DNA from: a virus
Lineage: Duplodnaviria > Caudoviricetes
Length of the DNA stretch: 64,000 nt
IMG/VR virus record: IMGVR_UViG_3300013936_000023
Coordinates: 10,757 to 74,756 of that record
Reading direction: 5' to 3' (one strand)
Every line of letters starts with the position of its first letter. Within the stretch, counting starts at the first letter, position 1. Shown here piece after piece: positions 5,155 to 54,373 of this stretch. The position numbers were made by a program, and so were the translations under genes. The notes beneath the pieces are model-generated. The model was not told the origin of the DNA and made no database searches. It saw nothing but the letters and a program-made list of their open reading frames with translations.

Positions 5155-5784
5155 TCACTCCTTCGCGGTTTCGTCTTCGTCAGGCTCGATAAGCATCAAG
5201 TCTTTGCCGCAAAGTTTACCAATCTCGATGGCCGCATTCGCATCAACAAACTGGCCGCGTTCCTTGCGAGAACAAATCATGTCAACGATGATTTGCTTCT
5301 GTGCCGCGTTGACCATCTTATACGTCTCAATGATAGTCTTGCCATCCTTGTCCAGCAGTTCTCTTAGCGCCTTTTCGTCAAGCAGATTGGCGTAAACATC
5401 CGTGAGATTATGCTCCTCAGCAAAGTCCTTGTCGGCGATATACACCGCGCCAGAATTGATAAGGTTCGTCATATTCTCAACGATGATGCTCGCCTCTTTC
5501 TCGGCGAAGTCACGATGATTGAACTGGCCGTCAATACGCCACATCACAGTGCCGCGCAGAACAATCGAGCCATTGGTCAGGTTGACAAAGCGAATGCGCT
5601 TGTCTTTCTTTGCGCTACGATTTTCTGTTTCAGGCTTTGCAGACATCATCTGGGCCATAAGCGCCATCTGAGCCTTCAGCTCTTCAAGTTGGGCTTTCAG
5701 GTCATCATTTTCTTTCTTGATGTCCTCAGCGGGCGTCTCAACTACTTCGGCAACCTTTGCGGTTTCACTCTTGGTTCTTGCCAT
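5155..5784 (-). CDS. hypothetical virion-associated protein
   Basis: 209 aa with strong SD AAAGGAG, directly downstream of capsid gene. Confidence 0.6.
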   Translation of the reverse strand: MARTKSETAKVAEVVETPAEDIKKENDDLKAQLEELKAQMALMAQMMSAKPETENRSAKKDKRIRFVNLTNGSIVLRGTVMWRIDGQFNHRDFAEKEASIIVENMTNLINSGAVYIADKDFAEEHNLTDVYANLLDEKALRELLDKDGKTIIETYKMVNAAQKQIIVDMICSRKERGQFVDANAAIEIGKLCGKDLMLIEPDEDETAKE

Positions 5785-5825
5785 TTTTATAATCTCCTTT
5801 TATTCCATTCATTCAGATTTTGAAA

Positions 5826-5852
5826 TAAGAGGGGCGCGAAGCCCCTCTATAT
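5826..5852 (-). terminator. terminator-like hairpin after major capsid gene
   Basis: AGAGGGGC-TTCGC-GCCCCTCT followed by TATTT. Confidence 0.65.
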
Positions 5853-5858
5853 TTCAAA

Positions 5859-6899
5859 TTAGTCGCTGATAGTATACACGCCAGCTTTCGCAGCGGAGGC
5901 GAAAACGAAATCCCAACCCTTACGATAGGTGAAGTTGGAAGTCAGGTCAGCATTGTCAAAGTGCTGGTTGGTGTTGGTCATGGCGGTGGTCATGACGCCC
6001 TTAACGAGCTTATCAACAGACGGGCTGATGACGTAAACCTTGTTGGCGGGCAGAACGAGCTTGCCGTCCGCACCAACAGCATTGGTCAGGCGCATGACGG
6101 GGAAGTCGAGCACGTTGTTAAGGATTTCGATAGAGCCACCCTCGCCGTTGATGTTCATACGGTAGCCAGTAGCGCTGTCAGGGAGAACCTTGAGCAGAGC
6201 AGCGGCAGAACCGATGATGTAGGGGCGAACGCCGCCATTGAGGGCCTGAACGGTCTCAGCCATCTCGACCAGAGAGGTGATATCCATAGCACCAGTCTTG
6301 TTGAGGTCGCCAGCAGGAATCGCGGCGATACCAGTGTTAAGGGCACTGACGGCATCCTTATACATGGCAGACTCAACAGAGGTCAGGAGCAGGCCCATGA
6401 AATCAGCGATGCTCTCCTTGCCAGCGAGGACACGGTAAAGGTCGCTGTAGATGGTGACGATATGCTCGACAGGAGCCACGACGATATCGGACTCAGACTT
6501 CTTCTGACGGAAAGTGGTACGCTGGCCATTAGCGGTCAGGGACACAGTGTAGAAGCTGCGAGGCATAATCTTGAACTTCACAACATCGCCGATACCAGCG
6601 GTGCGGAAATCAGCAAAGACGCTGAACTGGGGCAGGATGACCTGCGGCAGAATAGCGTTGATGGTCGCGTCGATGATGGCGAACGCAGCCCACTGGGTGG
6701 ACGGATGGGCAATCCAAGCGTCAACAGCATTGTCCTTGCGGGACACGCCAGACTTGCGCTCAACCTCGGCGAACCAAGCATCCTGCATCAGAGCCTTGTT
6801 CTCAGCAGTCTGCTTCTTGTCGCAGAAATAGGACATAGCCGCTTCATAGAAGTCGGTGTTCTCGCCAGCAAAGGCGATAAGGTCTTTATTCATAAGCAT
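5859..6899 (-). CDS. major capsid protein
   Basis: ~346 aa (start MLMNKDL after GAAAGGAG); strong codon bias; position after protease and decoration gene. Confidence 0.8.
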   Translation of the reverse strand: MLMNKDLIAFAGENTDFYEAAMSYFCDKKQTAENKALMQDAWFAEVERKSGVSRKDNAVDAWIAHPSTQWAAFAIIDATINAILPQVILPQFSVFADFRTAGIGDVVKFKIMPRSFYTVSLTANGQRTTFRQKKSESDIVVAPVEHIVTIYSDLYRVLAGKESIADFMGLLLTSVESAMYKDAVSALNTGIAAIPAGDLNKTGAMDITSLVEMAETVQALNGGVRPYIIGSAAALLKVLPDSATGYRMNINGEGGSIEILNNVLDFPVMRLTNAVGADGKLVLPANKVYVISPSVDKLVKGVMTTAMTNTNQHFDNADLTSNFTYRKGWDFVFASAAKAGVYTISD

Positions 6900-18869: not shown

Positions 18870-18977
18870 CGCAAGCGAGGTAAACGAAAATGTTGCAAAT
18901 GCAACAATGTAAATGTTAATAGTTTATTTACAGAATATTCATGATGCTGTCATAGAATCTTGATATAATTACCATAA

Positions 18978-19056
18978 TGGCAGGACAGGGAGTCATGACC
19001 TTGTTGATACCCTCAATATCAACTAACTGCCAAAATTTTTAATACTTGAGGGGTAT
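18978..19056 (+). promoter_or_regulatory. HEG leader RNA copy A (3-way junction plus anti-SD pseudoknot)
   Basis: P1 TGGCAG/CTGCCA, P2 ACAGGG/CCTTGT, P3 TTGATA/TATCAA; loop CCCTCAA pairs with TTGAGGG. Confidence 0.65.
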
Positions 19057-19061
19057 GCAAA

Positions 19062-19832
19062 ATGAATGAAAATGAACGCATTTGGAAACTGTATCGGTAC
19101 ACATGCAAGCATAATGGCCTTATCTATATCGGCATAACCAGCAAAACACTTGATGAGCGCTGGATGAATGGACATGGATATAAGAGCAATCCGAGGCTTA
19201 ACAATGCTATTCAGAAATATGGAGTAGATGGATTTATTCGGGAGATATTACTTGACAACTTGACTCAGCAAGAAGCGTTCGAAAAAGAAATTGAATATAT
19301 TGCAGAATTTAATGCCACAGACAAAAATGTGGGATACAACATATCGATGGGCGGAACAGCGCCAATGGCAGGGAGACATCATTCAGAAGAAACCAAAAGG
19401 ATGTTCTCTCAAACAAGACTTGGAGAAAACAATAGTTTTTTCGGAAAACATCATTCCGACAGAACCAAAGAAATTTTAAGCGAAGCCAACAAAGGCAAGA
19501 AGCATACGGAGGAATGGAAGAAAGAGCAATCTAAGCATTCTAAAATTTGGCACCAGACACATGACAACCCAATGCTTGGAAACCATAGATTTGCCGGTGA
19601 GAACAATCCTATGTATGGCAAGCGTGGCGGGGATTCTCCTTTTGCCGTTAAAGTTGCAAAGTTCTCTCTGGACGGTAAGTTGCTTGAAGTGTTTAATTCG
19701 ACAACAGAGGCGGCGCAGTCTATTGGAGTTTACAATGGAGCTCATATTACAGAGTGCTGTAAGGGAAGACGTAAAAAGTGTGGTGGTTATATATGGAGAT
19801 ATTTTGTGAACGAACAGGAGGAAGAAGAATGA
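19062..19832 (+). CDS. GIY-YIG homing endonuclease with NUMOD3/NUMOD1 modules
   Basis: LYRY...YIGIT...R...E motif; HSEETK/HSDRTK repeats; VAKFSLDG...FNSTTEAA. Confidence 0.85.
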   Translation: MNENERIWKLYRYTCKHNGLIYIGITSKTLDERWMNGHGYKSNPRLNNAIQKYGVDGFIREILLDNLTQQEAFEKEIEYIAEFNATDKNVGYNISMGGTAPMAGRHHSEETKRMFSQTRLGENNSFFGKHHSDRTKEILSEANKGKKHTEEWKKEQSKHSKIWHQTHDNPMLGNHRFAGENNPMYGKRGGDSPFAVKVAKFSLDGKLLEVFNSTTEAAQSIGVYNGAHITECCKGRRKKCGGYIWRYFVNEQEEEE

Positions 19833-23121: not shown

Positions 23122-23200
23122 AGCCTAAAGAGTTCTAAAGGGCAGCTCTATAAAAGCCCTATTCCATTCAATTTTTTTTATTAAAAGGAGAACAAAAAAC

Positions 23201-23455
23201 ATGAAAATCTATTCTGAAAAGTCTCTGAACGATCTTGAGTTTTGGAACGGTGCGCGTGATACTGTCAAGTATCTGACTTCTGACGAAATTAACCAGATCG
23301 AACAGAATCTTGAAGATCTTTATCCGGACGGCATGGACGAAACGGAAGTTAATGATTTCTTTTGGTTTGAAAACAATACTATCGCGGAATGGCTCGGCTA
23401 TAATTCTTTTGAAGACATTATGAACCGCGAAGAGGCCGAAAATAACGAAGAGTAA
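23201..23455 (+). CDS. small acidic early protein
   Basis: 84 aa, SD AAGGAG. Confidence 0.7.
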   Translation: MKIYSEKSLNDLEFWNGARDTVKYLTSDEINQIEQNLEDLYPDGMDETEVNDFFWFENNTIAEWLGYNSFEDIMNREEAENNEE

Positions 23456-23536
23456 ACCGCGCGGGCTCTCTAAGCCGTTCGAGCCTTTAATCGAGCGGCA
23501 TTCCATTCAAAATTTTTAATAAAGGAGATTAAAAGT

Positions 23537-23725
23537 ATGAAAATAGATAAAAAAAATATGTATGTTGCATATCCGACATTTTGCAAAAATCCGCGCGAAA
23601 CATTGATTATTTTTGCTGATGATTGTTGCGAAGCGCGCATAAAAGCAAATAAATTTTACGGCCATAGCTTTGTAAATGTCAGACCGCTTGAGAAAACAAA
23701 AGACAAGTATGTTTATAAATTTTAA
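23537..23725 (+). CDS. small early protein
   Basis: 62 aa, SD AAGGAG. Confidence 0.6.
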   Translation: MKIDKKNMYVAYPTFCKNPRETLIIFADDCCEARIKANKFYGHSFVNVRPLEKTKDKYVYKF

Positions 23726-27550: not shown

Positions 27551-28453
27551 ATGGACATTAAGGAAATTCTTAAAAAGCATAAGATGTGGCTTAACAACGA
27601 GATTGGTGGAAAGCGAGCAAACCTGCGTGATGCAGACCTGTGGGGTGCAGACTTGTGTGGCGTAAACCTGCGTGATGCAGACCTGCGTGGTGCAAACCTG
27701 CGTGGTGCAGACCTGAGTGGTGCAAACCTGTGGGATGCAGACCTGAGTGGTGCAGACCTGTGTTGTGCAGACCTGCGTGGTGCAAACCTGCGTGGTGCAA
27801 ACCTGCGTGGTGCAAACCTGTGGGATGCAAGCCTGCGTGATGCAGACCTGCGTGGTGCAAGCCTGCGTGATGCAGACCTGCGTGGTGCAAGCCTGCGTGA
27901 TGCAGACCTGTGTGGTGCAGACCTGCGTGGCGTAAACCTGCGTGATGCAGACCTGTGGGGTGCAGACTTGTGTTGTGCAGACCTGTGGGGTGCAGACCTG
28001 TGTTGTGCAGACCTGCGTGGTGCAGACCTGCGTGATGCAGACCTGCGTGGTGCAAGCCTGCGTGGTGCAAACCTGCGTGGTGCAAAAAACCTCGATAACG
28101 TTACATGGTCGATTTATACGGCATTTTATCCGCTTCAGTGTCCAGAAGAAGGAGAGTATATCGCATGGAAAAAGGCTCATGGCAAGATTGTCAAACTTAA
28201 AATTACGGAATCAGCAAAGCGTTCTTCTGCAGTATCTCGAAAATGTAGGGCAAGCGAAGCATTGGTTCTTGACATCCAATCTATTGACGGAATGGAACAT
28301 CTTGAATCGGTTGCAAGTGATAGAGATTCTAATTTCATCTATCGTGTTGGCGAAATTGTTCGAGTAAATGATTTCGACGAAGATAGATGGAATGAGTGCT
28401 CGACTGGAATTCATCATTTTATCACTCGTGAAGAAGCTGTGAAATACAACTAA
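27551..28453 (+). CDS. pentapeptide-repeat protein with DUF5758-like C-terminal domain
   Basis: A(D/N/S)L(R/W/C/S)(G/D/C) repeats; C-terminal KCRAS...FDEDRWNECSTGIHHF. Confidence 0.85.
   Translation: MDIKEILKKHKMWLNNEIGGKRANLRDADLWGADLCGVNLRDADLRGANLRGADLSGANLWDADLSGADLCCADLRGANLRGANLRGANLWDASLRDADLRGASLRDADLRGASLRDADLCGADLRGVNLRDADLWGADLCCADLWGADLCCADLRGADLRDADLRGASLRGANLRGAKNLDNVTWSIYTAFYPLQCPEEGEYIAWKKAHGKIVKLKITESAKRSSAVSRKCRASEALVLDIQSIDGMEHLESVASDRDSNFIYRVGEIVRVNDFDEDRWNECSTGIHHFITREEAVKYN
27617..28085 (+). repeat. 15-bp tandem coding repeat
   Basis: About 30 units of GTGCAGACCTGCGTG-like sequence. Confidence 0.9.
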
Positions 28454-30254: not shown

Positions 30255-30344
30255 ATAAACATAGGGAACAATCAAGTCGCTCTTGGTTGAGATAACAGCG
30301 CTCCTTCGTTGGGCTATGTTTATAAAATAAATATATCTAAGGAG
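30255..30344 (+). promoter_or_regulatory. HEG leader RNA copy B
   Basis: P1 ATAAACATAG/CTATGTTTAT, P2 AATCAAG/CTTGGTT, P3 CAGCG/CGTTG; loop CTCCTT pairs with SD AAGGAG. Confidence 0.65.
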
Positions 30345-30354
30345 AGGTATTATA

Positions 30355-31035
30355 ATGAGTAAGCGTTGTGATAATGCTATCGGTAAAAGGGTTGGCATAT
30401 ATGATGTTTTATATAAATGCGACCATAGGGACAAAGACGGTCATGAGTTATGTCATGTAAAATGCTCTGTGTGCGGGTGGGAGTCTAATATGAGGCTTTC
30501 TCAAATATCGAAAGCTAAGACTTGTACACACATATGTCTTGGAGGTAAGTTTGTACCAAAGTATTCTTGGAAGTCTCAAAGGCTTAGAAGAATATTTTCT
30601 AACATTAAAAGTAGATGCTATGACCCAAGCAACAAATCTTACCGTTGGTATGGCGGCAAAGGAATTGTCGTATGTGATGAATGGCTGTCAAATCCAGCTT
30701 CGTTTGAGGACTGGGCGTTACAAAATGGATATAGTGATGATTTAACAATAGACAGGATTGATGAATCTCTTGGCTATTGTCCAGATAATTGTAGATGGAT
30801 AACAGTCAAAGCTAATTCCAAATATAAATCTACGACAAGAGTTATCTACGTAAACGGCGTTGGTCATACGGGAAGAGATTGGGCAAAGATTTTATGTCTT
30901 GGCACAAACGTCATCAACAAAATGATGAGAGAATACGACGAGGATATTGTCGCAAGATTTATAAGAGCGAGAATGTACAATCCATCCTTAAAAACAAGAA
31001 ATAAATCTTGGTTAAAGGTTTATGGTTTAATCTAA
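30355..31035 (+). CDS. HNH-like (IDRID/NCRW) homing endonuclease
   Basis: IKSRC...YGGKGIVVCDEW...TIDRID...GYCPDNCRW. Confidence 0.8.
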   Translation: MSKRCDNAIGKRVGIYDVLYKCDHRDKDGHELCHVKCSVCGWESNMRLSQISKAKTCTHICLGGKFVPKYSWKSQRLRRIFSNIKSRCYDPSNKSYRWYGGKGIVVCDEWLSNPASFEDWALQNGYSDDLTIDRIDESLGYCPDNCRWITVKANSKYKSTTRVIYVNGVGHTGRDWAKILCLGTNVINKMMREYDEDIVARFIRARMYNPSLKTRNKSWLKVYGLI

Positions 31036-36402: not shown

Positions 36403-36412
36403 AATTTAATAC

Positions 36413-36469
36413 TTGACAAATCTCCTCTTGTGTGGTATCATGTAGATATGATGTAAGAGGAGGTTTGTC
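36413..36469 (+). promoter_or_regulatory. sigmaA promoter with embedded 15-bp anti-SD arm
   Basis: TTGACA-N17-TATCAT; GACAAATCTCCTCTT pairs with AAGAGGAGGTTTGTC. Confidence 0.75.
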
Positions 36470-36474
36470 TTGTT

Positions 36475-37131
36475 ATGGAAGAAATTTGGAAAGATGTAAT
36501 CGGGTATGAAGGTTTGTATGAAGTTAGCAATTTCGGATTGGTGCGCAGCGTTGATAGAGTTGTAACAAGGAAAACTGATGGTGCTTTATGTTATCTAAGG
36601 GGTAAAAAGTTGACTCAGCAAATTGATTCCAGTGGTAGATATTGGATGGTTGCTTTAAGTAAAAATGGTATTGAGAAAAGCTATAAAGTTCATTCATTGG
36701 TCGCAAAAGCATTCTTACCAAATGACGGCTCCTCCTTGGTTGTTGTGCACAAGGATGAAAAGAATCTGAAATATGATGGCGTATGCAACAACAGAGTTGA
36801 CAATCTTGAATGGGGAACGCTGGCAGAGAATAGTTCCAGTCCTGTTGCGAGAGAGCGCAATGCGGCATCTAAGAATATGGTTGGCGAAAACAATCCAATG
36901 TACGGTAAAACTCAATCTGAAGAGACGAGAAGGAAAATTTCTATTAAACTCAAAGGTAAGGGTGGGAGAATATCTCGTTCAAAGAAGGTCATGTGTGACG
37001 GAGTTTTATATGACTGTGTAACGGACTGTGCGGCAGCGTATAACGTAAAGGCTTGTACTATGATGTCTTGGTTGCGCGGTGATAGACCCATGAGAAAAGA
37101 TTTTAGAGAGAGAGGGCTTACCTATGTCTAA
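36475..37131 (+). CDS. NUMOD4-HNH-NUMOD3 homing endonuclease
   Basis: EEIWKDVIGYEGLYEVSNFG; VHSLVAKAF; VVHKDE...NNRVDNLEW. Confidence 0.85.
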   Translation: MEEIWKDVIGYEGLYEVSNFGLVRSVDRVVTRKTDGALCYLRGKKLTQQIDSSGRYWMVALSKNGIEKSYKVHSLVAKAFLPNDGSSLVVVHKDEKNLKYDGVCNNRVDNLEWGTLAENSSSPVARERNAASKNMVGENNPMYGKTQSEETRRKISIKLKGKGGRISRSKKVMCDGVLYDCVTDCAAAYNVKACTMMSWLRGDRPMRKDFRERGLTYV

Positions 37132-40100
37132 TTATACCATTTTACATTGTCACACCATGTTATCAAACGCCGTGACTAACATCGACTCTGTAACGACATA
37201 TCAGCAATATGTTGACAGGGCTAAAGAGTTGGGCATGACAGCTATGGCGATATCCGAGCATGGCTCAGTTATGGGCTGGGTCAAAAAGAAATTGGCAATG
37301 GAAGCCGCTGGTATAAGGTTCATTGCAGCCGAAGAATTTTACTTGACCAACACGCTCGACGAAAAGATTCGAGACAACTACCATTGCTTGCTCATCGCCA
37401 AGAATTATGACGGCGTACTTGAGCTGAACAAGTTGTCGAGCAAATCTTTCAATCGAGACGACAATTCGTTCTACTATGTGCCGCGCATCACTATTGAGGA
37501 TGTCAAGAACACCAGTGACAACATCATCGTATCAACGGCGTGTTTGGGCGGCGTGCTTAACAAAGCACCTGAGCCTATTCGCCAAGATTTTTTTGATTGG
37601 CTATGCCAGCATCCCGACCGTTGCTTTCTTGAAGTTCAGCCGCATATCAGCGCAGAGCAGAAACGATATAATCAAGCGCTTTGGGCGTTGAGCAAACGTA
37701 GTGGATTGCGGCTGCTGATGTGTACAGATACCCATGCGCTCAACGCCGAGCATGTGGAAGGTCGCAAGATTTTACAAAAGGCCAAGAGCATCCACTTTGA
37801 CGGCGAGGATGAATTTCATCTTGAGATGTTGAGCTATGATGAGCTTGTACGGCTATGTCAGCTCCAGAACGCCTTGCCCATGCAAGTTTATCTCGACGCC
37901 ATTGAGATGACGAATACGGTGGCGGATATGGTTGAGCCGTTTGAGCTGGACTATTCCTACAAGTACCCGCACCTTTGGGGTGATGATAGCGAACAGGTGC
38001 TTAGAGCCAAGATTGCAGATGGCATTAAATGGCGCGGCGTTGATAAGCTGCCCAACTACCAGCAGTATCTTGACCGCATTGAGTATGAAATGAAGGCATA
38101 TATCCATAATGGCGCTATTGATTTCATGTTGTTGATGGAGGATATTGTGGCATGGTGTCGCACACAGGATATTCTAATCGGTTATGGGCGAGGGTCGTGC
38201 ACGGGCAGTCTGATTGCCTATCTGCTCGGCATCACAGAGATGGACAGCATCAAGCACGGCCTTAATTTCGACCGCTTCATGAATGTGGAGCGTGTGTCAC
38301 TGAGCGACATTGATAGCGACATCGCTCCAAACAGAATTGACGAGGTTAAGGATTATGTGTTCAATAAGCACGGTCTGTACTGCGCCGATATTGTCACATT
38401 TAACACCATTGCCCTGAAGGGTGCCGTGCGAGATGTTGGCCGTGCATTAGGTATGTCGCTTGATGAAGTCGGCGCAATATGCAACGTGGTCGAACAGGAT
38501 GAGGCTGGATGCCGCGCTAAATATCCGGAGTTGTTCGAATATGTCGATATAGTAAACGGCTGCGTGGTGTCTGTGGGCAACCATCCTTCGGGCATGATAG
38601 TAGCACCGCACAGCATTGATGACCGCATGGGGCTATTCACCACATCTACGGATACGGTGCCTATTAGCCAAATCAATATGAAAGAGGTTGACCTTCAGAA
38701 CTACGTTAAGCTCGATTTGCTGAAATTGATAACCATACAGATTATCAATGAGACTTGCAAAATGATTGGCATAGACAGATTGACGCCGGATAATATAGAC
38801 GTAAATGATGTGGCTGTGTGGCAGTCTATTAGAGATGATACAACGGCCATATTCCAGTGGGAGTCGAGTTCGGCACAGCGGTATATCAAGCAGCTGCTGT
38901 CAGATAATACTATTGCCAAGTTGCGCAAGGTGCAGCCCGATATTGACTATATCACATTGCTGTCTATGGGTAATGGTGCCATTCGCCCCGCTGGCGCATC
39001 ATATCGTGATGAATTGGCAAACGGCGATATTAGAACCTATGACAATGAAGCAATCAACAATTTCATGTCTGATACATTCGGCTTCTTGATTTTCCAGTGT
39101 CAGATTATCGGCTTTTTGCACCAATACTGTGGCTATACTATGGGCGAGGCCGATGTTGTGCGTCGTCATTTTGCCAAAAAAACAGGCACAGATAAGGATA
39201 TCCCGCAAATCAAGGCTGGCTTTGCCAAGACTATGAGGGAACAGTATGGAATGAGCCAAGAGGAGTCCGACAAGACCATTGCCGATTTTATCCAGGTCAT
39301 TGAAGATGCCAGCAACTATCTATTCAGCCTAAATCATAGTCAGCCGTATAGCTATGAGGGATATGCCGAAGGATGGCTTAGATATTATTATCCGGTACAA
39401 TTCCTGACCGTATGCCTCAACGTTGAACAGGGCGATGACGGCAAGACGGCGGCATTGACAGCATACGCCCATAAGCTGGGCATCAAAATTAAATCGCCGC
39501 AGTTCCGTCATTCCAAGTCTGATTATTTCTGCGACGTTGACACCAAGTCCATATACAAAGGTCTTGGCTCAATCAAGTATATGAGCGCCGCAGTAGCCGA
39601 AGAATTGTACACCATGCGCGACCAGCAATTTGGCAATTTTATTGATTTTCTGTTCGCCATGCAGTCTATGACCAATAAGCCTGATAGCCGCCAGCTTGAC
39701 ATCCTTATCAAGATTGGGTACTTTGAGGAATTTGGCCCAGCCAAGGCGCTGTTGCTTGGCGTAGAGATTTTTAATAAATTTTTCAAGTGCAAGAATTTAA
39801 GGCTTGACAAATGGGCTGAGATGGGTTATGATATAGCCGTCCTAAAGGCCAACGCTGCCAAGCTCACAGATAAGACGGCGAGCGGCATTGACAATCATGG
39901 GCTTATCTTGGGTATTCTGCGGTCGTTGAAAATGCCGCGCACGACCATTGTTGACAAGCTCAGATGGCAATTCGAGATGCTTGGATATGTTGATGGTTCT
40001 GACTCACGCCGAGACGTCAATGAATATCTCGTGCTTGCCATCGAGACAACAAGTTATGGTGCGATATGGCTTAGGCTATATAACCTTGCCTACGGTGCTG

Positions 40101-40276
40101 AACGACGTTACAAGGTTGACAAGCGATGGGCAGCAAGCCATAGCTGCAAGACTGGCGATGTGCTCAAGGTTGTGCTGGATGAGAAGCCAAAATTCAAGAA
40201 ACTTGATGATGGCAAATTCGTCAAGACTGGCGAGGTCGAGACGGTTGTGAAAATGTTTAAGGTTTTGGAGGTTTGA
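37124..40276 (+). CDS. dnaE: DNA polymerase III alpha subunit
   Basis: PHP domain (HCHT, SEHG, CTDTH), GRGSCTGSL, SDIDSD, GNHPSG, KLDLL, FSLNHS. Confidence 0.9.
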   Translation: MSNYTILHCHTMLSNAVTNIDSVTTYQQYVDRAKELGMTAMAISEHGSVMGWVKKKLAMEAAGIRFIAAEEFYLTNTLDEKIRDNYHCLLIAKNYDGVLELNKLSSKSFNRDDNSFYYVPRITIEDVKNTSDNIIVSTACLGGVLNKAPEPIRQDFFDWLCQHPDRCFLEVQPHISAEQKRYNQALWALSKRSGLRLLMCTDTHALNAEHVEGRKILQKAKSIHFDGEDEFHLEMLSYDELVRLCQLQNALPMQVYLDAIEMTNTVADMVEPFELDYSYKYPHLWGDDSEQVLRAKIADGIKWRGVDKLPNYQQYLDRIEYEMKAYIHNGAIDFMLLMEDIVAWCRTQDILIGYGRGSCTGSLIAYLLGITEMDSIKHGLNFDRFMNVERVSLSDIDSDIAPNRIDEVKDYVFNKHGLYCADIVTFNTIALKGAVRDVGRALGMSLDEVGAICNVVEQDEAGCRAKYPELFEYVDIVNGCVVSVGNHPSGMIVAPHSIDDRMGLFTTSTDTVPISQINMKEVDLQNYVKLDLLKLITIQIINETCKMIGIDRLTPDNIDVNDVAVWQSIRDDTTAIFQWESSSAQRYIKQLLSDNTIAKLRKVQPDIDYITLLSMGNGAIRPAGASYRDELANGDIRTYDNEAINNFMSDTFGFLIFQCQIIGFLHQYCGYTMGEADVVRRHFAKKTGTDKDIPQIKAGFAKTMREQYGMSQEESDKTIADFIQVIEDASNYLFSLNHSQPYSYEGYAEGWLRYYYPVQFLTVCLNVEQGDDGKTAALTAYAHKLGIKIKSPQFRHSKSDYFCDVDTKSIYKGLGSIKYMSAAVAEELYTMRDQQFGNFIDFLFAMQSMTNKPDSRQLDILIKIGYFEEFGPAKALLLGVEIFNKFFKCKNLRLDKWAEMGYDIAVLKANAAKLTDKTASGIDNHGLILGILRSLKMPRTTIVDKLRWQFEMLGYVDGSDSRRDVNEYLVLAIETTSYGAIWLRLYNLAYGAERRYKVDKRWAASHSCKTGDVLKVVLDEKPKFKKLDDGKFVKTGEVETVVKMFKVLEV

Positions 40277-40970: not shown

Positions 40971-41037
40971 ATCAAATGCTGAATAAAGGCAGAAAGTGAG
41001 GATATAAGAATATGGGGATTGCAGTCAAGAATTTTCA

Positions 41038-41186
41038 AAAAAAAGTTCTTGACAACGGCATCTGGATGCGATATAATCTATAATAGAGGTTGAGATAAGG
41101 TTGCAAACTTTCTCATTTAGGACAACGTGCTTACTCCGCGTTGTCCACTCTAATAAAAATTTCTTGAGTAAGGAGAATGTAAGATG
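41038..41186 (+). repeat. ~150-bp direct repeat copy 1: promoter plus HEG leader RNA copy C
   Basis: TTGACA(41049)-N17-TATAAT; near-identical to 42380-42527. Confidence 0.85.
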
Positions 41187-41747
41187 GAAGAAATCTGGAA
41201 AGATGTTGTTGGATATGAGGGTTTATACGAGGTAAGTAATCTTGGTAATGTGCGTAGCTTGTTTCGGTACAAGAAACAACTCAAGTGGAACGTCTTGAGT
41301 TCTGGCTATGCGACTGTTCAACTTTTCAAAGAAAAAGTTGGTACAAGATTGCTTGTACATCGACTTGTCGCCAAGGCATTCTTACCCGATCCAGATGGAT
41401 TACCGGTCGTCAACCACAAAGACGAAAACAAATTAAATAATAGCGCGGACAATCTTGAGTGGTGTACTCAACAGTATAACTTAGCTTATAACGACGGGCA
41501 TAGAAAAAGAGCCGACAACACGCGCTGGTTCTATGATGAAATGCGTGTAAGGTTCAAAGAAAATAATCCCGCTATAAAATTGCCAGTCGTTCAGATGAGT
41601 TTGTCTGGCGAATTTATAAAAGAATGGCCAAGCGCCAAAGATGCAGTTGTTGCGCTTGGCTATAAATCAGACCATATCTGTGAATGTTGCAAAGGGAAAC
41701 GAGAGACATCTAATGGATTTAGATGGAAATATAGGGAGGTAATTTAA
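41184..41747 (+). CDS. NUMOD4-HNH-NUMOD1 homing endonuclease
   Basis: EEIWKDVVGYEGLYEVSN; VHRLVA; VNHKDENKLNNSADNLEWC. Confidence 0.85.
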   Translation: MEEIWKDVVGYEGLYEVSNLGNVRSLFRYKKQLKWNVLSSGYATVQLFKEKVGTRLLVHRLVAKAFLPDPDGLPVVNHKDENKLNNSADNLEWCTQQYNLAYNDGHRKRADNTRWFYDEMRVRFKENNPAIKLPVVQMSLSGEFIKEWPSAKDAVVALGYKSDHICECCKGKRETSNGFRWKYREVI

Positions 41748-42394
41748 TTGGGGTAGCTGTTTTGATTCTTGGTGAATCCGGCTCTGGTAAGTCGGCGTCC
41801 ATGCGAAACTTTGCGGAGAATGATGTTCGCATTCTGAATGTGGCATCTAAGCCGCTGCCGTTCAGAAATGTTAACAAGCTCAAGAAGGCCGATAAGGCAA
41901 CCTATGGCATGATTCGTGGCGCTGTTACGAGTGGCCAGACGTTGAGCTATGTAGTGGATGACGCGCAGTATCTCATGGCGTTCGAGAGCTTTGACAAGGT
42001 GAACGAGACAGGATATGGCAAGTTTACCACCATGGCTAAGAACTATGAAGAAATGCTGAGATGCATTCAGGAGGACACGTCGCCCGACACCATCGTCTAT
42101 GTTATGCAGCACGTTGACGTCGATGAAAATGGCAAGGTAAAGGCAAAGACGCTCGGCAAGATGCTTGACCAGCAGCTCACGGTTGAGGGGTTATTCACGA
42201 TTGTTCTGCTTGCCAAGGCAGATGAACGCCGCCATTATTTTATCACCCAGTCTGATGGCATGAATCCGTGTAAGTCGCCGATGGGGATGTTCGACGAAGT
42301 TGAGATTGACAACGACCTCAAGATGGTCGATGACACCATCAGAGAATATTATGGACTGAAGAAGAATACTGCGCCGAGTAAAAAAAGTCCTTGA
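41747..42394 (+). CDS. AAA-family ATPase (Sak4/NTP-binding recombination protein), probable ATT start
   Basis: (I)GVAVLILGESGSGKS Walker A, VVDD Walker B, KSPMGMF; SD GGAGGT 6 nt before ATT 41747. Confidence 0.75.
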   Translation: MGVAVLILGESGSGKSASMRNFAENDVRILNVASKPLPFRNVNKLKKADKATYGMIRGAVTSGQTLSYVVDDAQYLMAFESFDKVNETGYGKFTTMAKNYEEMLRCIQEDTSPDTIVYVMQHVDVDENGKVKAKTLGKMLDQQLTVEGLFTIVLLAKADERRHYFITQSDGMNPCKSPMGMFDEVEIDNDLKMVDDTIREYYGLKKNTAPSKKSP

Positions 42395-42527
42395 CAAAAG
42401 CATCCGGATGTGATATAATCCATAATAGAGGTTGAGATAAGGTTGCAAACTTTCTCATTTAGGGCAACGTGCTTACTCCGCGTTGCCCACTCTAATAAAA
42501 TTTCTTGAGTAGGGAGAATGTAAAATG
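42380..42527 (+). repeat. ~150-bp direct repeat copy 2: promoter plus HEG leader RNA copy D
   Basis: TTGACA(42391)-N17-TATAAT; compensatory GGGCAACG/CGTTGCCC. Confidence 0.85.
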
Positions 42528-43181
42528 AGTGCTCTGAAAGATTTAACTGAGAAACGCTTTGGAAAGTTGATCGTATTACGTAGGAGTGGCAATGATAAAC
42601 ATAAGAATGCGACGTGGTTGTGTCAGTGCGATTGTGGAAACAGATGTAATGTCGTAGGTGCAAATCTTTGGCGAGGCGATACAAAGTCTTGCGGATGTTA
42701 TAAGAAAACCAATAAATACGAAGAAGATGGGGCCGTAACAAGAATCCATCTCACGAATGGCTCTGTTGTGTTAGTTGACACCGAAGATGTTCCTAAGATA
42801 TCAATGTACCAATGGAGTATCGCACGTGGATATGCCGTAGCAACGATTAACAATAAAACAACATCTATGCATCGACCAATAATGGACGCCAAAGACGGAT
42901 TTGTTGTTGACCATATCAATCATAACGAGCTTGATAACAGGAAGAGTAACTTGCGCGTGTGCACTCAAAGCAATAACGCCATGAATCGTAAAAAGGCAAG
43001 CAATAACACGTCTGGATATATAGGTGTCGTGTTTAAGAAAGATTGTGGTAAATGGGAGGCATTTATTCGAGTTGACAAGAAGCGAAAATATTTAGGGTTA
43101 TTTGAAACGCCAGAGCTTGCTCACGAAGCTCGCAAAGAAGCCGAAGAAAAATATTTTGGTGAGTTCGCCTATCAAGGCTAA
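42525..43181 (+). CDS. HNH-AP2 homing endonuclease
   Basis: CQCDCG..SCGC; VVDHINHNELDNRKSNLR; SGYIGV..WEAFI..LGLFETPELA. Confidence 0.85.
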   Translation: MSALKDLTEKRFGKLIVLRRSGNDKHKNATWLCQCDCGNRCNVVGANLWRGDTKSCGCYKKTNKYEEDGAVTRIHLTNGSVVLVDTEDVPKISMYQWSIARGYAVATINNKTTSMHRPIMDAKDGFVVDHINHNELDNRKSNLRVCTQSNNAMNRKKASNNTSGYIGVVFKKDCGKWEAFIRVDKKRKYLGLFETPELAHEARKEAEEKYFGEFAYQG

Positions 43182-53500: not shown

Positions 53501-54373
53501 AGTAAGCATATCCAGCGGCTCAGAAGAGTCACGGGGTTAACGAACCAGTTGTAAGCCCCTAAATTGTCGTAAATTTGCAACTTCGCGTTGCAAGGTTCCT
53601 TTAATTGGACTCTAACAGGGTCAGAAATCAAATAATTATTAAAGGGGTATCAAGAGATGAATAATTCAAACCTTGAGTTTAGAAAAATTAAATCATTGAA
53701 ATTCTTATACGAAGTCAACGAGAATGGGACAATCTTCCGCAATGTCAAGTCAAAGAAGCAGCTCAAAATCAAGCTGGATTACCATCACTCTGAAGCTGGC
53801 CACTACGTCACATTTGTTCATCTTGGTGGCAGAAGCAAAGACAGCAAAATTGTCAGGTGTATGATTCATCGCATCGTGGCGGAATGTTGGCTTGGAGATT
53901 GCCCCGAGGGCATGCAAGTCGACCACATTGACCGCAATTCACACAATAACGACTGGCGCAATTTGAGATATGTAACCATCAGCGAGCAAATGAAAAACCG
54001 AGACCATTCAAATATCTCGGCGACTGGTTCAGAGAATCTTGCTAAAGCAAGAGCCGAAAGAGCTGTTGGCGTCGTGGCAATCGGGAACAATGAGCGTCAT
54101 GAGTTCAAGTCTAAAGCAGATTGCGCAAGATGGCTTGGCGAGCTATATGGTATTGACCCCGAAAAGATTCGCTGGAGACTTAAACTGTATCGTAAACACG
54201 TATATGATTTTGATTTAATTTATCTGAATGCAGAGACTGGACACGGCAGCTCTACGGAGCAAGGAACAGTCCGCGAAAGCGATTTAACTGGCAACTACAC
54301 AACAGCGTTCAACAAGGGCAAACAGCAGGAGGTTGAGATGCGCATCAAACATGACGAGGTGATGACCGAATGA
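50507..54373 (+). CDS. nrdD: anaerobic ribonucleoside-triphosphate reductase (join 50507-53537, 54282-54373; contains an intein)
   Basis: ATP-cone (VTKRDG), IHDLD, MGCRT, TPAEN, zinc site CxxC..CxxC; spliced RRVTG|YLTG glycyl-radical motif. Confidence 0.9.
51017..51928 (+). mobile_element. intein with LAGLIDADG endonuclease (304 aa) in NrdD
   Basis: N|CFQRDTKF...TRNHRW...GFVIGDG...GYMAADG...HTFTLDGGIVTGN|C. Confidence 0.9.
53538..54281 (+). mobile_element. group I intron in nrdD
   Basis: P1 GGGGU/GCCCC with U-G at the 5' splice site; R GCAGAGACTGGA (54230-41), S AAGGAACAGTCC (54261-72); terminal G; splicing restores G-Y-L-T-G. Confidence 0.9.
53657..54373 (+). CDS. intron-encoded HNH endonuclease, in frame with nrdD exon 2
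   Basis: YEVNENG, IHRIVAECW, VDHIDRNSHNNDWRNLRY; ends with the NrdD tail LTGNYTTAFNKGKQQEV. Confidence 0.85.
   Translation: MNNSNLEFRKIKSLKFLYEVNENGTIFRNVKSKKQLKIKLDYHHSEAGHYVTFVHLGGRSKDSKIVRCMIHRIVAECWLGDCPEGMQVDHIDRNSHNNDWRNLRYVTISEQMKNRDHSNISATGSENLAKARAERAVGVVAIGNNERHEFKSKADCARWLGELYGIDPEKIRWRLKLYRKHVYDFDLIYLNAETGHGSSTEQGTVRESDLTGNYTTAFNKGKQQEVEMRIKHDEVMTE

Follow-up and report, generated by a model that had tools for sequence, protein, structure and literature searches.

In large phages, homing endonucleases (HEs) are the chief mobile genes, and they must be expressed with restraint. To our knowledge, control of HE expression has so far been known only in the form of gene-specific hairpins in T4-type phages. 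Specifically, RNA structures that sequester the Shine-Dalgarno (SD) sequence or the AUG limit translation of I-TevI, I-TevII, I-TevIII, segB, and mobE (PMC3014915, citing Gibb and Edgell 2009, J Bacteriol 191:2409). Here, we describe a structured 5' leader RNA that precedes several HE genes in the complete 74,756-bp IMG/VR virus record IMGVR_UViG_3300013936_000023, of which bases 10757-74756 form the 64-kb window that was analysed and to which all unprefixed positions refer. Like the leaders of I-TevI, I-TevII, I-TevIII, T4 segB, and Aeromonas phage Aeh1 mobE, it is a cis-acting structure that pairs the SD or start codon of a phage HE mRNA, the pairing here being predicted and supported by covariation. 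Such T-even-type leaders are found on intron-borne as well as free-standing endonuclease genes, and the rationale would be the same, i.e. to keep a risky nuclease low or late. However, they are single, local, gene-specific hairpins, whereas the leader described here is a multi-helix fold (a three-way junction, a further hairpin P4, and a loop-loop contact) that is conserved as a family and common to unrelated endonuclease families. Moreover, a late promoter inside the I-TevI structure yields an unlocked transcript, whereas the leader described here has its own consensus promoter upstream of the whole fold and no sigma-70-type promoter inside. The kind of control is already known; what is new is the family of RNAs with its multi-helix kissing-loop design and palindromic loop, and the fact that it is portable across HE families.

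The two most similar copies lie in a replication module. It has a gene for DNA polymerase III alpha (37124-40276), after which come small genes, the gene for an AAA-type ATPase, and several HE genes. Here, two blocks, copy C (41038-41186) and copy D (42380-42527), form 149-bp direct repeats with 91-93% identity; sequence comparison over the whole 74.7-kb record gave no third close copy. A first-pass annotation of the sequence had described a ~150-bp block of promoter, leader, and SD that occurs once before a NUMOD4-HNH gene and once before an HNH-AP2 gene, and domain searches bear out both gene assignments. Each block opens with a TTGACA-17-TATAAT promoter that matches the consensus at 12 of 12 positions and closes at the ATG of the HE gene; the -35 hexamer of cassette D shares bases with the ATPase stop codon. 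Because the promoter of cassette C ends 6 nt before P1, the first helix of the leader, the transcript is expected to start at or just before P1, and the spacing from the -10 hexamer to P1 is constant (6-7 nt) among leaders of the C/D type and most copies of the A type described below.

The minimum free energy folds of leaders C and D are the three-way junction of helices P1, P2, and P3 that had been proposed for them (Table 1), with z = -4.7 and -5.1, respectively, relative to dinucleotide shuffles. The junctions are short (1-5 nt) and have conserved bases, namely a GU that follows P1, a UUUR that joins P2 to P3, and an A that precedes the 3' strand of P1. As had also been pointed out, the differences between the two copies preserve pairing: in P3, GGAC/GTCC in C is GGGC/GCCC in D, a compensatory change from A-U to G-C, and in the contact between the P3 loop (L3) and the SD, GAGTAAG in C is GAGTAGG in D, a wobble-preserving change from U-A to U-G. 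The P2 loop, for which another sequence had been given, is the 8-nt GUUGCAAA.

Homologues of C and D came from two sources, i.e. contigs from viruses and metagenomes that were scanned with patterns based on the conserved 3' part, and loci around relatives of the ATPase gene; together, these gave seven distinct leaders. A covariance model, R1, was trained solely on four copies from other phages with only P2 and P3 specified; over the window, it recovered C and D at E ~1e-14 with the next match at E 0.2. Together with a second model, R2, it extended the set by less similar copies in complete genomes of related phages (L129, L260:11330, L279, and L280), giving a total of 11 distinct sequences. 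In the R1-derived alignment of nine distinct sequences, 94% of cells pair and 20 of 30 pairs have double changes, which was reached by none of 500 shuffles, and controls with slid 3' partners gave 38-55% pairing. Because P1 and the loop-SD helix lie outside the R1 model, they are not fitted by the alignment; the loop-SD helix is nonetheless 100% paired in the nine sequences, and five of its seven pairs are compensatory. The L3/SD-side variants are CUUACUC/GAGUAAG, CUUAUAC/GUAUAAG, CUUACAC/GUGUAAG, CCUAUAU/AUAUAGG, CUUGCAU/AUGCAAG, CUUGUCU/AGACAAG, and CCUACU/GGUAGG, in addition to the U-G forms GAGUAGG and GUGUAGG, and every variant is complementary. In a strand test based on G-U pairs, the sense strand fits better than the antisense strand (94.5% versus 90%). 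A lack of covariation in homologues had been named in advance as a possible refutation; covariation is present in the 11 distinct C/D-type sequences. Because of this covariation and the better fit of the sense strand, we conclude that the leader is a real, conserved, strand-specific structure that acts as RNA.

Further searches delimit this family. The leader gave no blastn match in GenBank phages; in viral contigs, neither a bare 14-mer nor a widely gapped pattern gave more than chance matches; and a pattern scan of genome contigs gave no true leader copy among the 120 matches listed. R2 gave no match in the related phage records G004 and G005-G009, a diverged copy in G009 that was found with a structural descriptor scoring E 0.5, and no match upstream of 52 distant relatives of HE-D, the HNH-AP2 endonuclease. 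Weak matches at 5782-5860, 23124-23203, L130:5326, and 34976 were judged spurious or unrelated. In one of the related genomes, the HNH_3 gene behind the leader (L279:1590-1620) lacks an ATG, GTG, or TTG where one would be expected relative to the SD; its frame opens at an ATT 10 nt after GGAG.

The first-pass annotation had described the contact between L3 and the SD region as a pseudoknot. The pairing of the P3 loop with bases that overlap the SD holds; however, the SD-side strand is itself the loop (L4) of a further hairpin, P4. In the C/D family, P4 (UUCUU/GAGAA) pairs an anti-SD with the SD and is nearly invariant, with one compensatory change, while in other leaders the flanks of L4 differ and yet pair (AUAC/GUAU in copy A, AUAUCU/AGGUAU in copy B, and also in L280 and L292). 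P4 encloses the SD-side strand in the window's copies A-D, in L129, L279, L280, and L292, and in all A-type homologues except L604, in which it is weak. Thus, by prediction plus covariation, the SD is held by both L3-L4 and P4 in the window's four copies and in all homologues but one. In the 5-bp register of P4 (UUCUU/GAGAA), the whole 7-nt loop is free for a full 7-bp contact, and an alternative 6-bp register that is favoured by the energy model competes with the last two pairs of the contact. Based on these models, the SD-side strand would be the apical loop of P4, so that the contact can form as an L3-L4 kissing loop; with P4 open, an H-type pseudoknot would be just as possible.

The same architecture had been suggested to precede a GIY-YIG gene (leader from 18978) and an HNH gene at 30355. 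For the architecture this proved correct, whereas a shared RGUYRY motif in the P2 loop did not hold up. The C/D covariance models do not detect either leader, the best score being that of copy B at E 7.4, and copies A and B are therefore different sequence types. For copy A, contigs encoding GIY-YIG proteins with 53-86% identity were searched, and the leader is present in six. In an unfitted MAFFT alignment of these A-type leaders, 97% of cells pair and 9 of 22 pairs are compensatory, which was reached by none of 500 shuffles. The changes fall in P1, in P2, in L3-L4 (CCCUCAA/UUGAGGG to CCCUUAA/UUAAGGG, i.e. C-G to U-A), and in P4 (AUAC/GUAU to AUCU/AGAU), and four different P3 stems occur; in one member, L599, a 31-nt gap lies ahead of P1. 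For copy B, the homologues L613 and L615 encode proteins with 66-71% identity and have an almost unchanged leader in which the sole helix changes are G-U to A-U, which is consistent with the fold and amounts to weak covariation. No promoter was found directly upstream of copy B. Some relatives use other SD-sequestering helices (L288, L605/L607, and L610). Among the GIY-YIG relatives, the SD in L605 and L607 is buried by a 10-bp long-range helix of AAATCGTCTC with GAGACGATTT, and L600 retains only P4.

To describe the distribution of the fold, we used a descriptor that requires a P3 hairpin and, no more than 30 nt from the start codon, a second hairpin closed by at least 4 bp, with 6 nt or more of pairing between the two loops. 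Applied to the 160 SD-preceded open reading frame (ORF) starts of the whole 74.7-kb genome, it identified A, B, C, and D and one spurious site that overlaps a promoter -10 hexamer; on shuffled upstream regions, 1.2% were positive. The leader heads at least four endonuclease types, i.e. NUMOD4-HNH, HNH-AP2, the phrog_3377 HNH family, and GIY-YIG. In 169 distant GIY-YIG and HNH relatives that belong to other lineages of phages, matches to the descriptor stayed at chance level; the fold is thus common, but not every endonuclease gene has it.

Comparisons with relatives document that the leader is part of a mobile cassette composed of promoter, leader, and endonuclease ORF. A near-identical fragment (L121) contains cassette C and lacks cassette D (42380-~43200), such that the ATPase gene runs straight into the next gene; this comparison identifies the whole block of promoter, leader D, and HE-D as an insertion or deletion. 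Comparison with L124, where the AAA ATPase gene is continuous, places cassette C directly behind the fifth codon of this gene, which it splits. The old ATPase start (ATG GGG ATT GCA GTC, 41013) now heads a 23-codon remnant (MGIAV...) that runs into the cassette promoter (41013-41084), and the ATPase frame resumes at the stop codon of HE-C, the NUMOD4-HNH endonuclease, with a recoded G-V-A-V (41745-41765). There is no ATG at this point; from the sequence, translation of the resumed frame possibly starts at ATT or a later TTG, and its SD lies inside the end of HE-C. In relatives, leaders occur at other genome positions and head NUMOD4-HNH, HNH-AP2, phrog_3377-type HNH, and other HNH_3 genes, some of them decayed, and near-identical leaders precede different endonuclease ORFs (L259 versus D; L251 versus L268). 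The first-pass idea of a portable module that travels with mobile nucleases thus agrees with cassettes that are present or absent between relatives and carry at least four endonuclease types.

What would such a leader do? In every copy, it is the ribosome-binding site that L3 and the anti-SD stretch pair with. We suggest that the leader is most likely an SD lock that holds translation of the nuclease down, as for T4 I-TevI and Aeh1 mobE; we infer the translational effect and its repressive direction from the paired bases being the SD and from the analogy with I-TevI and mobE. The element is a cis-acting 5' leader of ~100 nt in mobile cassettes, with a consensus sigma-A/sigma-70 promoter, of free-standing HE genes in a group of uncultured phages. 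Transcription would begin at the foot of P1 and the RNA would fold as the three-way junction of P1, P2, and P3; downstream, the anti-SD (UCUU) and the SD would form the weak hairpin P4, whose 6-7-nt loop would pair base for base with the P3 loop. The L3-L4 contact would clamp the ribosome-binding site onto a stable scaffold and hinder 30S binding, so that little nuclease is made, or only under certain conditions. As a self-contained fold, the leader would also lock the gene in transcripts that read through from promoters further upstream. The interrupted downstream genes would be kept transcribed by the strong promoter of the cassette itself: a scan for terminators 3' of the HE genes on the + strand found none, and the cassette promoters therefore probably feed downstream genes too.

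Several observations weigh against this proposal. The homologues are related to each other, and the covariation counts consequently overstate the number of independent events. As P4 is nearly invariant in the C/D family, its covariation is seen mainly in the A family and when the types are compared. In the C/D family, no more than three bases of AAGGAG, those at its 5' end, lie in the L3-L4 helix, and P4 by itself is weak (-2.4 to -4.6 kcal/mol), so an SD lock could be leaky. Of the about seven HE-like genes in the genome, those at 36475 and ~26200 are without the fold and that at 53657 has only a long-range anti-SD stretch. Finally, the conserved junction bases and the palindromic loop of P2 exceed the needs of a simple constitutive lock.

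The last point leads to the alternative of a regulated switch, in which an input, i.e. the RNA's own concentration via kissing dimers of P2, a phage or host RNA-binding protein, or a small ligand at the junction, would open or close L3-L4 and time the nuclease within infection. The feature that P2 loops have in common is not the RGUYRY motif mentioned above but a 6-nt palindrome of the form U-NNNN-A that nearly all of them hold. Six variants (UUGCAA, UAGCUA, UGCGCA, UGUACA, UAAUUA, and UCAUGA) occur on different stems in two sequence families, at the same loop position, and they differ even between two leaders within one genome. Exceptions are copy B (30277-30281) and the two A-type members L601 and L603, in which P2 is capped by the non-palindromic pentaloop UCGCU, i.e. 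in two leader types of unrelated sequence. Because the centre of the palindrome cannot pair inside a single hairpin, the simplest reading is that it suggests a loop-loop homodimer of two leader RNAs; nearest-neighbour energies are -4.5 to -5 kcal/mol for the loop self-duplex, and an extended dimer is favoured by -8 to -9.5 kcal/mol. A similar feature, a self-complementary hexamer exposed in an apical loop, is found in the dimerisation initiation site (DIS) of the HIV-1 5' leader, where a 6-nt palindrome lies in a purine-flanked hairpin loop and the leader fold also occludes the start region, and the phi29 pRNA is a three-way-junction RNA with loops for intermolecular contacts. Both are analogies only, with no relation in sequence or family (the pRNA Rfam family was not matched), and dimerisation here is a prediction.

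In line with a switch, the junction bases GU, UUUR, and A are conserved, and P4 and the longer 7-bp pseudoknot are mutually exclusive alternatives. On the other hand, the three leaders with UCGCU have no palindrome, junctions of 1-5 nt are small for a ligand pocket, and the gene context points to no partner protein or ligand. The riboswitch expression platforms of preQ1-II, SAM-II, and guanidine-II sequester the SD by a pseudoknot or kissing loop, and as here, a hairpin loop pairs with SD bases, guanidine-II having two kissing hairpin loops. In the leader described here, however, there is no Rfam match, compensated changes are free to occur at the pairing bases, there is no apparent conserved pocket, and the nuclease context suggests no metabolite. 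Taking these points together, we consider a regulated switch unlikely, and we have equally modest expectations of its most specific version, a self-dimerising riboregulator in which the mRNA would recognise its own kind via the P2 palindrome and a concentration-dependent dimer would shift the junction and thereby lock or unlock L3-L4. If it were true, a dosage or timing sensor for genome copy number or infection stage would be built into a selfish nuclease gene and travel along with it.

Other forms of regulation were considered. Autorepression by the cognate nuclease, which the first-pass annotation had listed, is unlikely because one leader type heads unrelated nucleases. A ligand, a phage factor, or a role as an RNP partner, also listed there, may each be involved. 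An internal promoter similar to that of I-TevI has no support: a scan found no sigma-70-like promoter inside the leaders on the + strand, and none of the linker 8-mers forms a recurrent motif in the rest of the genome, a scope that covers the known consensus rather than phage-specific late promoters.

A role in mRNA stability or insulation, in which the paired 5' end (P1) and compact hairpins would shield the cassette transcript and downstream essential genes from 5'-end-dependent RNases and the SD contact would be secondary, is in our view very unlikely. The fixed distance from the -10 hexamer would place the 5' end in P1, and transcription from the cassette promoter into downstream genes fits this explanation as well. 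However, it fails to explain why L3 covaries with SD bases in at least eight variants across three sequence types or why P4 pairs an anti-SD with the SD, and neither copy B, which lacks a promoter directly upstream, nor L599 with its gap before P1 conforms to it.

Least probable is that the block functions as DNA, with an incidental RNA fold, and either provides homology for the shuffling of cassettes or is the operator of a dimeric DNA-binding protein. The promoter-early stem-loop (PeSL) elements that Arbiol and co-workers reportedly described in 2010 as mobile regulatory cassettes of T4-type phages are likewise repeated blocks of early promoter and stem-loop with variable, shuffled gene cassettes, and C and D do flank HE-C and the ATPase gene as direct repeats, different endonuclease ORFs do follow near-identical leaders, and P2 is a near-perfect DNA palindrome downstream of a promoter. 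However, PeSLs are described as DNA-level recombination substrates, whereas covariation and SD pairing point to an RNA function here. Helices that keep pairing via compensatory changes and G-U pairs despite sequence divergence, even within one genome, would not be tolerated by an operator, and in duplex DNA the long-range complementarity of L3 and L4 is meaningless. Recombination may be a second role beside that of the RNA, but it cannot account for the covariation.

Known RNA classes were also considered. P3 as an intrinsic terminator or attenuator was rejected as the U-tract is not conserved and the scan gave no terminator; a hammerhead or other self-cleaving ribozyme was rejected as there are no core motifs and no Rfam match; and a preQ1-I-like aptamer, suggested by a resemblance of AGAGGUU...CUCUAAUAAAAA, was rejected as no Rfam score supports it. 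The first-pass annotation had found no named family for the leader, and Rfam 15 agrees for all three leader types. Specifically, the whole window at gathering thresholds gave two tRNAs only, leaders C and D gave only noise at E<=10, and the homologues in L128, L130, and L251 as well as the A-type leaders gave no match. A full-text literature search of limited coverage, in which absence is not proof, returned no description of such a leader.

The occurrence of at least three sequence types with one architecture before four endonuclease families suggests deep conservation or repeated convergence. The leader offers a new RNA family for Rfam and a compact, natural, and potentially reusable 'SD clamp', and its palindromic loop raises possible mRNA self-dimerisation in phage gene control. 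For annotation, it marks the 5' boundary of endonuclease cassettes.

Table 1 Features of the four leader copies and their genes (positions in the window)
Feature	Position	Strand	Details	Basis
Cassette C promoter	41049..41077	+	TTGACA, 17 nt, TATAAT; 3' end 6 nt before P1	12/12 consensus
Copy C three-way junction	41084..41152	+		MFE (minimum free energy) fold, covariation, model from other phages (E ~1e-14)
Copy C P1	41084-41088 with 41148-41152	+		Fold, covariation
Copy C P2	41091-41115	+	8-nt loop 41100-41107; palindrome TTGCAA 41101-41106	Fold, covariation
Copy C P3	41120-41146	+	7-nt loop L3 41130-41136	Fold, covariation
Copy C predicted expression platform	41161..41186	+	P4 anti-SD UUCUU (41161-41165) with GAGAA (41173-41177); L4 GAGUAAG (41166-41172); SD AAGGAG 41170-41175; start codon 41184-41186	Covariation, energies
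HE-C	41184..41747	+	NUMOD4-HNH_3 homing endonuclease, 187 aa	Domain search
Cassette D promoter	42391..42419	+	TTGACA, 17 nt, TATAAT; TG before -10 hexamer	12/12 consensus
Copy D three-way junction	42426..42494	+	P1 42426-42430 with 42490-42494; P2 42433-42457; P3 42462-42488, L3 42472-42478	Fold, model match, covariation
Copy D P4 and L4	42502..42527	+	L4 GAGUAGG (42507-42513) pairs L3 via one U-G; start codon 42525-42527	Covariation
HE-D	42525..43181	+	HNH_3-AP2 homing endonuclease, 218 aa	Domain search
Copy A	18964..19064	+	Distinct sequence family, same architecture; ATG at 19062	Fold, covariation in six homologues
Copy A extended -10	18961-18969	+	TGaTATAAT; P1 begins 8 nt after	Sequence
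Copy A P1	18978-18983 with 19027-19032	+	TGGCAG/CTGCCA	Fold, covariation
Copy A P2	18986-19003	+	Loop AG-UCAUGA; palindrome TCATGA 18993-18998	Fold, covariation
Copy A P3	19003-19023	+	GTTGATA/TATCAAC; L3 CCCTCAA 19010-19016	Fold, covariation
Copy A P4	19042-19045 with 19053-19056	+	Encloses L4 TTGAGGG 19046-19052 (= SD)	Fold, covariation
Gene behind copy A	19062-19832	+	GIY-YIG-NUMOD3	Domain search
Copy B	30255..30357	+	Third sequence type, same architecture; ATG at 30355	Fold, descriptor
Copy B P1	30255-30264 with 30314-30323	+	8-10 bp	Fold
Copy B P2	30269-30289	+	Loop UCGCU (non-palindromic)	Fold
Copy B P3	30296-30311	+	CAGCG/CGTTG; L3 CUCCUU 30301-30306	Fold
Copy B P4	30333-30338 with 30345-30350	+	Encloses L4 AAGGAG 30339-30344 (= SD)	Fold
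Gene behind copy B	30355-31035	+	phrog_3377 HNH	Domain search

Further observations concern other genes of the window and of related phages. The region 36409-36480 precedes a NUMOD4-HNH paralogue of HE-C and has a consensus promoter and a leader of just ~35 nt with no structure, and the HNH-like ORF at ~26200 is embedded in coding sequence with no structured leader. In front of the fifth HNH_3 gene (53657-54373), CCTTTAAT lies ~35 nt upstream of ATTAAAGG at the SD (8 bp), and the region 53560-53660 also contains a TTGCAAC/GTTGCAA hairpin and no clear three-way junction. Two small non-nuclease genes (84 and 62 aa) lie behind a GC-rich hairpin, ATTCCATTCAA, an A/T-rich linker, and an SD (23124-23203 and 23474-23537); the leader at 23474 shares its linker with copy A and has an 8-nt loop complementary to UAAAGG at the SD. 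Judged by sequence, these two leaders may be a simplified relative of the lock. In the phages G001 and G002, several HNH genes (L289, L291, L299, L609, and L612) lie in group I intron core-like sequence with recurring GTGAACCT...TAGGGTGTG and GCTAACGGGGAA, a likeness by sequence alone. Finally, ~26 tandem 15-nt units (repeat family D1) at 27557-28159 are probably a pentapeptide-repeat coding region.

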